Shown one piece after another: positions 11,901 to 14,900 of a stretch of 38,884 bases of DNA. The position numbers were made by a program. This DNA comes from a virus (Duplodnaviria; Heunggongvirae; Uroviricota; Caudoviricetes): IMG/VR virus record IMGVR_UViG_2728369182_000009, one strand, 5' to 3'. Each line of letters starts with the position of its first letter. The first letter of the stretch is position 1.

Positions 11901-14900
11901 TTAGTAAGGCTTGTTAGATCTTTAGGTGGAACCGCCAAAGAATCCAGCAGGACGGGAATAGTTTACACGTACAAAGGAGAGAAGCATGACGGACTTGATG
12001 CACACATGGTCAGCATGAAGTTGCCATCATCTTTGATAGAGCAAATTCACTCACCACGTTTACGCAAAAATCTCGGGATTAACAGGCTTGGCGACCTTGG
12101 TGTGGGTATCAAATCGGTTGAAGTTGTTGAGCCAGAAGAGTGTCTCTGCATCATGGTAAGCCATCCTAGCCATCTCTATGTGACAACGGATTACATCGTT
12201 ACGCACAACACGGAACTGGCGCTGAAGATTGCCGAAGGCGTTGCAAGCCGCGTTATTCCTGGTTCTGACGTCCGGCGCGGGGTATTGATTTTCTCAATGG
12301 AAATGAGCGCATTGCAGATTGCAGAGCGAAGCATTGCCAACGCCGGGAGGATGTCGGTTAGTGTACTGCGAAATCCTGCATCGATGGATGACGAAGGCTG
12401 GGCGCGTGTTGCTAACGGCATGAGTCAGCTTGCAGATTTGGATGTATGGGTGGTCGATGCCTCGCGGTTATCGGTCGAAGAAATACGCTCAATCGCAGAA
12501 CGGCATAAACAGGAAAATCCAAACCTGTCTCTAATCATGGCGGATTATCTTGGCCTGATTGAGAAGCCGAAAGCAGACCGCAACGACCTCGCAATTGCTC
12601 ACATCTCCGGAAGCCTGAAGGCGATGGCGAAAGACCTGAAAACGCCTGTTATCTCCCTGAGTCAGCTTTCGCGCGATGTTGAGAAGCGACCAAACAAACG
12701 CCCGACAAACGCAGATTTGCGTGATTCAGGAAGCATTGAACAGGACGCAGACTCAATCATCATGCTCTATCGGGAAGCGGTATATGACGAGAACAGTAGC
12801 GCCGCACCATTTGCTGAAATCATTGTGACAAAAAACCGTTTTGGCTCGCTTGGTACGGTTTACCAGCGGTTCTGCAACGGACACTTTGTTGCATGTGACC
12901 AGGATGAAGCCAGACAGATTTGCACAGCATCAAATTCACCTGCTGCACGTGGCAGACGATATGCACAAGGGGCTGACGTATGACCATCTACATCACTGAG
13001 CTAATAACAGGCCTGCTGGTAATCGCAGGCCTTTTTATTTGGGGGAGAGTAATTGGAGGATTTAAGAAATGAGTACGATAGCTGAGCTTGTCAGGGCTAA
13101 TTTTCGTGAAGAGTTGGTGCGTTGGTATCGGTATCGTTCATCGTCAAGTTTGCCGCTTGATGAGTTGTATGAGCATTCACCTGCCGCACGACGCTATCCG
13201 CGTGACCGTGTTCTTCGACGGTTGTTCAAACTCAACAATGAGTTTCAGCGCAACAGAATAATCCGGAGTCTGGATTTAAAGTGAAGGAGTGAGCATGAGT
13301 CGACGAAGTAGCTTTTTGGGGTTTGTAATATTCCTGTTCTGCACTGGTTACATCGTAATCTGGTCAATTTCGAACATTGACCGTGGCGGGGAATATCTCA
13401 TTGTAATGTTCTTTCCTTTGTTTCTTGGGTGGTACGCCGCAAGGTTGCTGGAAGAATGGGGTTACAGGCATAAAAAATAAAGGAGTGTTCAGTGACGCAA
13501 ACCATTTTTTATTGGATTAAGAGCGAGTGGTAAGTACCGATGGTAAATGCATTTATTTGTAGTTTATTTCTTGTCGCGATTTTTCATGGATTCCTTTTGA
13601 TGATGAGTTTTGTTCTCTGGAATAATGGATATCGCATATTGGGAGTAGGTTTTGTTTTACGGTTTTCAGTTCTCTGCGCGTTGCTACCGATAATTATGGC
13701 GACTATCAAATATTATTGGTAACCCAAAAAATCATCGATGGAGAGTGATATGGACGAATCAAGAAAGCAGTTTGAGGAATACGTTGCCAAAAAATTGAGA
13801 TTACCATTCGAGATGATAACCGAGGCAAGAAATGGTGATAGGTACTTCGCATTTTCAAGCATGGATATTCGTCACTCCTTAAATGAGTGGTGGACTTTAT
13901 GGCAGGCATCGCGAGCAGCTATTGAACTGGATATCGACTGGCCAGAATCGAATGACGACTTTTGGAAAGATGGTGAAGAAGGTGCTTATGCGATGGGTTA
14001 TGAGGATGGGCGTGACAAAACGGTAATTGCAGTAATGAAAGCTATCAGAGCCGCTGGAATTAAAGAGAAGAATTTCGATGAAGCAAACAATCTTCCTCCG
14101 AAGTAAGCAACAACAGCAAGCCGCAATCAACGCCATCCTCGCAACACCACTCGATAAAGACAAGCCAGTTACCATCCGCATTACTGACTACAAGCGCAAC
14201 CTTGACCAGAACGCAAAATTTCACGCGATGCTGGCGGATATCGCACGTCAGGTTCAATGGTGCGGAAAATGGTTAAAACCGGAACAATGGAAGGTTTTGT
14301 TGATCAGCGGTCATGCAGTGGCAACAAAACAGGAAGCTGATGTTTTGCCCGGGCTTGAAGGCGAATACGTCAACATTCGCGAAAGTAGCGCGCAGATGAG
14401 TGTGAAGCGTATGGCAAGTCTGATTGAGTACACGACAGCATGGGCTATTGGTCAGGGTGTCAGATTTACCGACAGGAGGTACGAATGAGACGACAGCGAC
14501 GAAGTATCACCGACATCATCTGCGAAAACTGCAAATACCTTCCAACGAAACGCACCAGAAATAAACGCAAGCCAATCCCGAAAGAATCTGACGTAAAAAC
14601 CTTCAACTACACGGCTCACCTGTGGGATATCCGGTGGCTAAGACATCGTGCGAGGAAATGACAATGGATTATTCACAGTTAAGTGATTTTGAAATTAACG
14701 TGGCGGTATTCGAAGCCATTCATAACGGATCACCGGATTACAAAGAAGGTGAGAATGGCGATATGGTGTTTGTCTCATTTGAGGGAGACATTGTAAACGG
14801 AGACGCAGTTGAAGTAGAGGTTGAGCGCGGATCCTTTAACCCATGCGCAAACCCAGCAGACGCATGGCCGATTATTGAAAAATACAGGATTAGCATTATC

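Follow-up and report, generated by a model that had tools for sequence, protein, structure and literature searches.

A P22-like E. coli phage carries two small hydrophobic reading frames, ORF1 and ORF2, in the part of its delayed-early pR transcript that lies between the helicase gene and ninB (Table 1). The window, by which we mean the whole stretch of 38,884 nucleotides that was analysed, carries the genes of this locus on a single strand, close together and with ATGA overlaps. The intrinsic terminator downstream of the helicase gene is identical in sequence to lambda tR2 and marks the beginning of the nin region; genes 3′ of it are read only by antiterminated pR transcription. The DUF7301 gene comes next, and its 3′ end bears the sequence that forms the left boundary of ORF1. 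On the far side, ORF2 is followed by a phiTE_015-family gene, whose true start is the ATG at 13750, preceded by GGAGAG, and by the functional ninB of the phage, the first 29 nt of which overlap the end of the phiTE_015-family gene. A Q-like antiterminator gene lies further downstream and, past it, a P22-type lysis cassette, ~5 kb from ORF1 and ORF2.

Table 1. Positions of genes and sequence features in the window
Feature	Position	Strand	Remarks
DnaB (replicative helicase) gene	10590-12983		
Intrinsic terminator (lambda tR2)	13009-13042	+	Stem 13009-13032 plus T-run; terminator scan, alignment with the lambda ren-ninB spacer
DUF7301 gene	13069-13284	+	71 aa; TGA stop 13282-13284; Pfam PF23975, E=4e-26; RefSeq annotation of identical prophages
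Left boundary 20-mer	13278-13297	+	AAAGTGAAGGAGTGAGCATG; upstream stop, AAGGAGTG and ORF1 ATG
First AAGGAGTG	13284-13291	+	Overlaps the DUF7301 TGA stop; ends 3 nt before ATG 13295
ORF1	13295-13480	+	61 aa; predicted two-helix membrane protein, MSRRSS-TM1-NIDRGGE-TM2-EEWGYRHKK
Second AAGGAGTG	13480-13487	+	First base shared with the ORF1 TAA stop
Putative ninB start relic	13480-13502	+	Shine–Dalgarno sequence AAGGAGTG (13480-13487), spacer TTCA, then GTGACGCAAAC
GTG mini-ORF	13492-13533	+	13 codons, VTQTIFYWIKSEW and stop; GTG four nt past the second AAGGAGTG
ORF2 leader	13503-13539	+	Aligns with Gally L008 ...GTAGCCCTTTTTTATTGGATTAAGAGCGAGGGGTAAGTACCGATG
ORF2	13540-13722	+	60 aa; predicted very hydrophobic two-helix membrane protein
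phiTE_015-family gene	13750-14106	+	RefSeq annotation; PHROG 343
Functional ninB	14078-14488	+	ATG start; Pfam NinB, E=1e-55
Q-like antiterminator gene	16767-17285		Downstream of ORF1 and ORF2
gp13-like holin (P22-type lysis cassette)	18445-18768		
Lysozyme (P22-type lysis cassette)	18752-19228		
Rz (P22-type lysis cassette)	19225-19662		

In position, strand and tight packing, ORF1 and ORF2 resemble the nin accessory genes of lambdoid phages such as lambda, P22, HK97 and Sf6: they share strand and pR transcript in the region that runs from the replication genes and tR2-type terminator to the Q-like gene, and their presence and order vary among close phages, with junctions exactly at gene boundaries. 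As a class, nin genes differ from phage to phage, are non-essential, also for plaque formation in the laboratory, and are believed to have arisen through illegitimate recombination (PMC5630979, which cites Juhala 2000 and Casjens 2004); they form a pool of 30–50 genes with about 10 per phage (PMC5630979). However, neither ORF is one of the named nin genes (ninA–ninZ), and whereas NinB, NinE, NinF, NinG, NinH and NinX, in the window and in related loci, match soluble families, ORF1 and ORF2 are predicted membrane proteins.

A simple consensus scan, which weak or non-sigma-70 promoters could escape, found promoter-like and terminator-like sites at the locus no more often than expected from shuffled sequence (2 promoter-like sites versus 2.7 expected), and none of the promoter-like sites lies upstream of ORF1 or ORF2. 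Likewise, in phage Gally there is no promoter-like sequence in the 35 nt that separate the terminator from the ORF2 start. Rfam yielded no match at E<=0.01, only chance hits outside both ORFs. Both proteins would be made in lytic growth only, through read-through of the tR2-like terminator.

Two predicted membrane hairpins

The start of ORF1 is the ATG at 13295, which is conserved in a diverged homologue; a GTG at 13289 falls within the Shine–Dalgarno sequence. The initial annotation described two tandem proteins of 60 aa with two transmembrane helices each. Two helices are indeed apparent in the Kyte–Doolittle profile of either protein (GRAVY 0.46 for ORF1, 1.52 for ORF2), and the length is right for ORF2, but ORF1 has 61 aa. 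Both AlphaFold models are hairpins with a pLDDT of about 70, H3-26/H30-60 in ORF1 and H2-28/H32-59 in ORF2. ORF1 is predicted to adopt an N-in/C-in topology, and the conserved, positively charged loop of ORF2 probably lies in the cytoplasm. The second gene is AT-rich, as had been noticed, with a GC content of 34.4% versus 43–50% in its neighbours and 46.5% in the whole window; ORF1, at 42.5%, is not distinctive in composition.

ORF1 shows coding constraint. In comparison with its 72%-identical homologue L009 its dN/dS is 0.19, with dS near 1, versus 0.79 and 1.94 in the two other frames of the region, and 17 replacements are seen where 27.5 are expected (simulation P=5e-5). Judged by these substitution patterns, ORF1 is a genuine protein-coding gene.

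The close alleles of ORF2 tell less. Their omega is 0.72, with 13 replacements versus 13.1 expected and no synonymous excess; substitutions fall evenly across the codon positions (5, 6 and 7), and the absence of stop codons is unsurprising (P=0.43). These figures, and the lack of a RefSeq annotation, are compatible with an ORF2 that is non-functional in this phage, whether as a spacer rich in AT or as a degenerating remnant, retained only through linkage to the phiTE_015-family gene, which lies directly downstream in 63 of the 63 close ORF2 loci scored for flanks. Since dN/dS among close alleles is uninformative and does not demonstrate constraint within E. coli, deep homologues were used instead, and the coding case rests on them.

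An exhaustive HMMER search recovered relatives of 60–65 aa (E=3e-9 to 1.5e-4), 30–40% identical, which come from other lambdoid early regions; pairwise alignments in the family are free of gaps at 40–45% identity. At this deep divergence pS is 0.78 versus a pN of 0.42, and the coding signature appears in the ORF2 frame alone. The family motif SFVxWxN(G/A)(Y/F)(R/K)xLGxGxxxR, in short form SFVxWxNxxRxLGxGxxxR, spans the inter-helix loop, and besides the start Met seven residues are invariant (S23, F24, W27, N29, L34, G35 and R41), all of which are kept in the window. Moreover, the 60-codon frame is intact in all 13 alleles (63 loci), without indels, although the flanks do have them, and deep homologues of equal length occupy similar loci. 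Against this evidence a spacer or remnant is very unlikely, and ORF2 can be taken as a genuine protein-coding gene. The conserved family that it defines has a clear sequence motif and is named in no database, and the copy in the window agrees with the family in length, two helices, loop motif and location in a lambdoid early operon.

Neither protein has a match in Pfam, PHROGs, NCBIfam, PADLOC or PDB, and neither is annotated in any of the RefSeq records examined. Of 5426 complete E. coli genomes, 195 contain ORF1 (the five records listed leave it unannotated) and 78 contain ORF2; carriers of these two small membrane genes, flagged here as missing from RefSeq annotation, include O26:H11 and 55989-type E. 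coli. The lysogens O26:H11 11368 and ML775 have exactly the arrangement of the window. A Pfam match of ORF1 to Acyl_transf_3 was discarded as hydrophobic noise (15.5 bits versus a cutoff of 31). The PDB sequence search gave matches of ORF1 to TRPV4 helices, which are chance (E>1), and none for ORF2. Foldseek against BFVD matched neither model at E<=0.001, the helical hairpin being too generic a fold. A word-indexed protein search, even when queried with profiles, returned only 4 close clusters per ORF, and the 90% cluster holding ORF2 is an artefact, filled by the neighbouring phiTE_015 protein and uninformative on ORF2. Alignments scanned against genome contigs yielded one locus for ORF1, within a mis-binned MAG, and zero confirmed loci for ORF2. 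The two proteins were also compared with each other; they are unrelated. As far as sequence tells, ORF1 and ORF2 are real genes for functionally uncharacterised, ~60-residue predicted membrane hairpins.

Cassette boundaries and the ninB-like junction

The initial annotation drew attention to AAGGAGTG as a reiterated ribosome-binding motif. Its recurrence alone is insignificant, with 3 copies in the window versus 1.06 expected and 7 of 100 shuffles reaching 3. Each copy on the + strand stands at Shine–Dalgarno distance from a start codon, and this spacing bears out a role as ribosome-binding motif at both sites of the locus. The first copy is present as described, one base further along (13284-13291 instead of 13283-13290); the second is present too, at the ORF1 stop and before a 13-codon mini-ORF that begins with GTG.

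The surroundings of the first copy are not specific to ORF1. It belongs to a 20-nt boundary, AAAGTGAAGGAGTGAGYATG, that precedes at least 15 different downstream small genes (119 IMG/VR contigs) and that stands, in different frames, behind upstream genes of two unrelated families. This boundary would provide the ORF1 cassette with an upstream stop, a Shine–Dalgarno sequence and a start codon.

The usual place of ORF1 is a variable slot directly upstream of ninB, common to many soluble-protein cassettes. The annotated ninB start, AAGGAGT(G/A)TTCAGTGAAGCAAACAAT..., comes after ORF1 in 611R6, phiv205-1, Gally and most IMG/VR loci, and in the window GTGACGCAAAC equals ninB codons 1–4 with one substitution. 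The second AAGGAGTG is best read as an orphaned ninB Shine–Dalgarno sequence, and the right edge of the ORF1 cassette would be this sequence together with the GTG start. Beyond it, the ORF2 leader has a different source: it combines the T-run that ends an intrinsic terminator with the closing codons (..FYWIKSE and stop) of a small terminator-spanning ORF. The breakpoint between ninB relic and leader, GTGAAGCAAAC/CCTTTTTTATTGG, is visible in context tables of multiple loci and in the alignment, and is identical, GCAAAC/C, in every locus with the arrangement of the window. The mini-ORF, which is in frame with ORF2 and ends 6 nt ahead of its ATG, straddles this breakpoint; to judge from the junction, it is a chimeric recombination scar, made up of 11 nt from the ninB start joined to the tail of the terminator T-run, and not a peptide gene.

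ORF1 alone, ORF2 alone and both gene orders all occur among phages. In 611R6 and phiv205-1 the annotated ninB immediately follows ORF1, and Gally has terminator, ORF2, phiTE_015-like gene, ORF1 and ninB, in that order. The usual context of ORF2 is after a terminator or another gene, always with a phiTE_015-family gene next. The cluster, or tandem unit, proposed initially is not supported by this comparison: the two ORFs, separate or reversed elsewhere, are independent, unrelated cassettes, not a functional pair, and their adjacency would be due to ordinary cassette shuffling. We infer that one illegitimate recombination joined nucleotide 11 of ninB to the T-run of the terminator preceding ORF2 and thereby inserted the ORF2–phiTE_015 unit between ORF1 and ninB. 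Such a single event would account for both the second AAGGAGTG and the 13-codon GTG mini-ORF, and the main outcome of the analysis is that motif repeat and mini-ORF are explained away. This explanation, which takes GTGACGCAAACCATTTTTTATTGG as fused sequence and not as a natural beginning of ninB, and the locus as an ordinary mosaic nin-region segment of a P22-like E. coli phage, is in our estimation probably correct. The locus would then be a clean example, resolved to the base, of the shuffling of tiny cassettes by lambdoid phages, in which recombination at short shared ribosome-binding-site and start-codon sequences leaves readable scars.

Possible roles of the two proteins

Coding status, junction anatomy, cassette independence and operon position were established in the analysis, and they bear on what the two proteins, which are expected to insert into the inner membrane, could do. 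The initial annotation saw candidates for toxin-like, exclusion or lysis-timing functions. The position in the early pR operon, the lack of an own promoter or terminator and the distance of 5 kb from the lysis genes argue against these in their classical forms, as part of a toxin–antitoxin system, as a moron or as a holin.

Membrane-damaging toxins of the type I toxin–antitoxin kind (Hok/Ldr), or host-killing peptides, are short and strongly hydrophobic as ORF1 and ORF2 are, but usually have a single helix where these have two. No dedicated promoter and no Rfam antitoxin RNA were found, antisense promoter-like sites number 2 versus 2.7 expected from shuffles, the genes belong to an operon read in one direction and are translationally coupled to their neighbours, and the slot of ORF1 also houses many soluble-protein cassettes. 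A toxin role is extremely unlikely. Class II holins and pinholins, such as S21 of phage 21, have about 60–70 aa and two transmembrane helices. ORF1 and ORF2 are alike in size and architecture, but differ in locus, timing and family match: they are early genes, a complete P22-type lysis cassette is already present beyond the Q-like gene, and no Pfam or PHROGs holin family was matched. It is scarcely credible that they act as holin- or antiholin-like factors in lysis timing.

Superinfection exclusion or host protection at the inner membrane, in the manner of HK97 gp15, P22 SieA and T4 Imm, would block DNA entry by rival phages. Both proteins are small predicted inner-membrane hairpins, ORF2 is AT-rich compared with its neighbours, as are horizontally acquired morons (PMC3594210), and in related phages the helicase–ninB interval has several further small membrane protein genes. 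On the other hand, the YebO-like moron gp15 forms a transcription unit of its own and is expressed from the prophage (PMC3594210), and its likeness to ORF1 and ORF2 ends with its being a small phage inner-membrane protein and with the deviant base composition of ORF2. The two genes show no sequence similarity to it, lack a promoter or terminator of their own by the consensus scan, and are situated in the repressed pR operon downstream of a tR2-type terminator, so that expression in the prophage is unlikely; moreover, neither matched YebO/gp15, the Sie families or the PADLOC models. Exclusion is on balance improbable, and a T4 Imm-like variant confined to the lytic cycle would be compatible with these observations.

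The relic of ninB could itself have acquired a use. The Shine–Dalgarno sequence of ORF2 is weak, and the ORF2-family members examined all have an ORF upstream, their starts ranging from 8 nt within it to 6 nt past its stop. By termination–reinitiation 6 nt before the ATG, the mini-ORF may feed ribosomes to ORF2, a proposal to which we give somewhat less than an even chance. RNA folding near the ORF2 start is no stabler than that of shuffled sequence (z=0.32), so the idea of a start-sequestering hairpin was abandoned, and there is no sign that ORF2 requires coupling. An in-frame relic is expected by accident in one case out of three, and the carriers vary too little in sequence to reveal selection on the mini-ORF. 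The helicase–ninB interval contains at least five unrelated hydrophobic ORFs. A larger proposal makes it a hotspot in which ORF1 and ORF2 represent two undescribed families of early inner-membrane effectors and the relic has been co-opted as leader ORF of ORF2. We regard this proposal as unlikely; if true, each protein would bind a specific membrane protein of the host, such as a transporter, a protease, a defence sensor anchored in the membrane or the route by which the DNA of competing phages enters.

By analogy with small membrane proteins in general, which usually act in this way, it is tentatively suggested that ORF1 and ORF2 might bind a host envelope or membrane protein and not work as enzymes. 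A host target, if found, would add to the few phage small membrane effectors that have been characterised. Small bacterial membrane proteins that regulate larger ones, such as AcrZ, MgrB and MgtS (reviewed in PMC12648545), fall into the same size range and lack an enzymatic domain; unlike ORF1 and ORF2 they are chromosomal, mostly single-helix and stress-regulated, and they have no homology to either. The conservation of ORF2 is centred on one loop or interface motif, which is compatible with a binding-partner role of the AcrZ, MgrB and MgtS type.

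Two small membrane protein genes in the proximal nin region

The window derives from a P22-like (Lederbergvirus-type) E. coli phage or prophage and is similar to Kapi1, CUS-3 and Gally over roughly half of the initial 25 kb. ORF1 and ORF2, two small membrane protein genes between a DUF7301 gene and a phiTE_015-family gene, are surrounded by tightly packed genes that are all on the + strand. The gene order, from the helicase through a tR2-like terminator and ninB to a Q-like gene and the lysis genes, places both in the proximal nin region and hence on the delayed-early pR transcript; they run in the same direction as the pR operon and are tightly packed within it, downstream of a tR2-type terminator.

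Features in and around the ORF1-ORF2 locus (window coordinates)
Feature	Coordinates	Strand	Remarks
DnaB-type helicase gene	10590-12983	+	split by an inserted segment containing a LAGLIDADG domain
30-aa hydrophobic ORF	12980-13072	+	reads through the terminator hairpin
Intrinsic terminator	13009-13042	+	every base as in the lambda tR2 region, ren-ninB interval
DUF7301 gene	13069-13284	+
20-nt boundary	13278-13297		contains the first AAGGAGTG
AAGGAGTG, first copy	13284-13291
ORF1	13295-13480	+	61 aa; ATG to TAA
AAGGAGTG, second copy	13480-13487		overlaps the ORF1 stop codon by one base
Mini-ORF	13492-13533		13 codons; GTG 4 nt past the motif
ORF2	13540-13722	+	60 aa
phiTE_015-family gene	13750-14106	+
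ninB	14078-14488	+	ninE next downstream
Q-like antiterminator gene	16767-17285		further downstream of ORF1/ORF2
P22-type lysis cassette, complete	18445-18768 (holin)		downstream of ORF1/ORF2; holin, then lysozyme, Rz

The elements described in the initial annotation are all present in the window and need small corrections. Two ORFs of about 60 aa are indeed there, ORF1 being slightly longer than reported, and the 8-mer AAGGAGTG occurs before and after ORF1 as described, the first copy having been misplaced at 13283-13290. Both copies are real ribosome-binding sites, and the second precedes the expected 13-codon GTG ORF; the repetition of the motif is by itself not significant (three copies in the window versus 1.06 expected, and at least three in 7 of 100 shuffles). 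ORF2 is AT-rich, as noted (34.4% GC versus 46.5% for the whole window). Hydropathy profiles and AlphaFold models (pLDDT ~70) agree with the predicted pair of helices in each protein, which form a hairpin with a 3-residue turn.

Two further observations concern the upstream genes. The helicase (797 aa) carries an insertion of ~340 aa after the Walker A sequence GMGK, with LAGLIDADG_3 and Hom_end domains at aa 393-454, and looks like it harbours an intein whose first residue is Ala rather than Cys or Ser; in related phages the protein is uninterrupted (446-478 aa). The 30-aa ORF, a match to PHROG 5907 (E=5e-17), is joined to the helicase stop and to the DUF7301 start by ATGA overlaps and passes through the tR2-identical hairpin; lambda has the same ORF in its ren-ninB interval, unannotated and with an ATGA overlap at each end. 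Its C-terminal tail varies with the downstream module, and its conservation may signify translation coupling across the terminator or may reflect the terminator alone.

Coding status and family relationships

Novelty at the locus is confined to three items: neither gene carries an annotation in the RefSeq records examined, the ORF2 family is defined for the first time together with its motif, and a recombination scar has been mapped at single-base resolution. In identical prophages, RefSeq (PGAP) annotates DUF7301 and phiTE_015 and leaves the 465 bp in between empty; no feature underlies ORF1 or ORF2 in the sampled E. coli hits, while some GenBank submissions list ORF1 as a hypothetical protein. 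Among 5426 complete E. coli genomes, 195 carry ORF1 and 78 carry ORF2. The two proteins are mutually unrelated and have no match in Pfam, PHROGs, NCBIfam, PADLOC or PDB sequences, and fold searches with their models returned generic hairpins only.

Purifying selection clearly acts on the ORF1 protein. A homologue with 72% aa identity, located directly after the helicase in two metagenomic contigs, differs at 45 nucleotides with a dN/dS of 0.19 (dS near 1), compared with 0.79 and 1.94 in the other two frames. When the same substitutions were placed at random, 17 or fewer replacements, as observed, arose in 5e-5 of trials, and a stop codon arose in 76%. In two IMG/VR loci (L031 2251-2481), an ORF1 variant altered near the C-terminus (...RHKNKGVFSEANPFLLD, 76 aa) lacks the stop and continues into the ninB-relic and leader region.

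ORF2 could in principle be non-coding, and comparison with its closest diverged allele, which differs at 18 nucleotides (78% aa identity), yields no surplus of synonymous substitutions (omega 0.72). Against this reading stand deep homologues and 63 loci in which the frame is intact and free of indels, although indels do occur in the flanks. When 1.84 billion representative proteins were searched exhaustively with HMMER, relatives of 60-65 aa emerged (P0049, E=3e-9; P0051-P0053, E=3e-5 to 1.5e-4); their pairwise BLASTP alignments are gap-free from end to end, with 40-45% identity. S23, F24, W27, N29, L34, G35 and R41 are invariant, and the motif SFVxWxNxxRxLGxGxxxR covers the loop between the helices and reaches into the beginning of helix 2. 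In this deep comparison, pS (0.78, saturated) exceeds pN (0.42) in the ORF2 frame only, the other frames being about equal. Homologues, motif and frame-specific signature together make ORF2 part of a genuine protein family that has no name. P0049 maps to a lambdoid nin region with a phiTE_015 gene nearby. P0052 is found in lambdoid prophages, in their leftward early region, where Dam precedes it and a zf-dskA_traR gene follows; P0053, on a short contig, has the same two neighbours. P0051 comes from a 1.8-kb contig and is surrounded by small uncharacterised genes. As initially proposed, ORF1 and ORF2 are thus real genes, two independent and selected ones encoding membrane hairpin proteins.

Shared boundaries and a recombination scar

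The apparent organisation of the locus is a by-product of routine mosaic recombination. The boundary before ORF1, AAAGTGAAGGAGTGAG(C/T)ATG, is also the 3' end of two unrelated gene families in different frames, DUF7301 (...LDLK, stop) and phiTE_015 (...IRAAGIKVKE, stop), and the first AAGGAGTG is part of a common junction of stop codon, Shine-Dalgarno sequence and start codon. Among the matches listed, at least 15 different genes are found downstream of the exact 20-mer on at least 119 IMG/VR contigs (loci L124-L243); ORF1 follows it in 24 cases, and elsewhere the genes encode, among others, proteins of 46-98 aa and Lar-like zinc-finger proteins. Since the 20-mer opens so many different genes, ORF1 is one of many alternative cassettes in a slot just upstream of ninB. 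This agrees with the published description of the nin genes, which form a pool of 30-50 members, variable and non-essential, moulded by illegitimate recombination at gene boundaries (PMC5630979), and the 20-mer, common to many lambdoid phages, resembles a textbook linker for module exchange. Related phages have further small membrane protein genes in the helicase-ninB interval (L011 2455-2661 and 2674-2994; L006 1000-1206), including those for a 68-aa two-helix protein (...VIIGVMPVVVAKMAWRFVS) and a 106-aa single-helix protein (MADWQIPIIILAGASLVAGFILLKKHK...); the interval is possibly a hotspot of such genes, in a sample biased by the choice of loci for ORF1/ORF2 content.

In vB_EcoP-611R6 and phiv205-1, ORF1 runs directly into AAGGAGT(A/G)TTCAGTGAAGCAAACAATCTTCC, the annotated ninB start, and the order in Gally is helicase, terminator, ORF2, phiTE_015-like gene, ORF1, ninB. 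Among the first 113 loci fetched, duplicates from the same contigs included, ORF1 is present in 92, ORF2 in 65 and both in 45, with the window order in 37 and the Gally order in 8. Context tables and alignment give the window-type junction as GTGAAGCAAAC/CCTTTTTTATTGGATTAAGAGCGAG(T/G)GGTAAGTACCGATG, where the part left of the slash is the ninB Shine-Dalgarno sequence plus the first 11 nt of ninB, and the part to the right comes from the terminator preceding ORF2 in Gally, namely its T-run and the tail beyond it (...GTAGCCCTTTTTTATTGG...). Microhomology at the breakpoint amounts to at most 1-2 nt, and because the breakpoint is identical in all carriers, it goes back to one illegitimate recombination event; the window copy has two additional substitutions. 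As the junction joins the ninB start to the terminator tail, the mini-ORF is chimeric, combining ninB codons 1-4 with the last codons (..FYWIKSE, stop) of a small Gally ORF that reads through the terminator; judged by this composition, it is a scar and not a peptide gene.

The phiTE_015-family gene has a conserved MDESRKQF N-terminus and a mosaic body downstream. It has neither the boundary 20-mer nor the customary ...IRAAGIKVKE terminus, finishing instead in ...IKEKNFDEANNLPPK and a stop, with a 29-nt overlap with the ATG-initiated ninB, a second, different junction into ninB in the same phage.

Candidate functions and translation

The context gives no support to the functions initially proposed. 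Exclusion by prophage expression of the moron type, as defined in PMC3594210, is disfavoured by the operon position and by the absence of a promoter and terminator of their own, no promoter-like or terminator-like site around the two genes rising above chance level. Both proteins would be produced only in lytic development, following antitermination, and exclusion confined to the lytic cycle is a possible role. A type I toxin is made unlikely by the presence of two helices in each protein, by the lack of antisense signals and by the position of the genes within an operon; no known RNA family matches at the locus. A holin-like role in lysis is likewise disfavoured, the late lysis cassette being separate and complete.

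ORF1 is positively charged at each end (MSRRSS..., ...RHKK) with an acidic or neutral loop, from which an N-in/C-in hairpin is predicted; the only charged residues of ORF2 are R32, R41 and K57, and its basic conserved loop suggests that the loop is cytoplasmic. As neither protein has an enzymatic domain and conservation is focused on one short motif, we tentatively favour binding and modulation of a host membrane protein as the likeliest mode of action, at clearly less than even chances.

The Shine-Dalgarno sequence of ORF2 is weak, and no structural sign was found that ORF2 requires coupling. In every context examined, a translated ORF lies upstream of the ORF2-family gene, whose start falls anywhere from 8 nt inside the stop of that ORF to 6 nt past it. 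Because the mini-ORF, which has a strong Shine-Dalgarno sequence and whose stop lies 6 nt ahead of the ORF2 ATG, provides such an upstream ORF in the window, the relic may quite possibly, at somewhat under even chances, now act as a coupling leader for ORF2.
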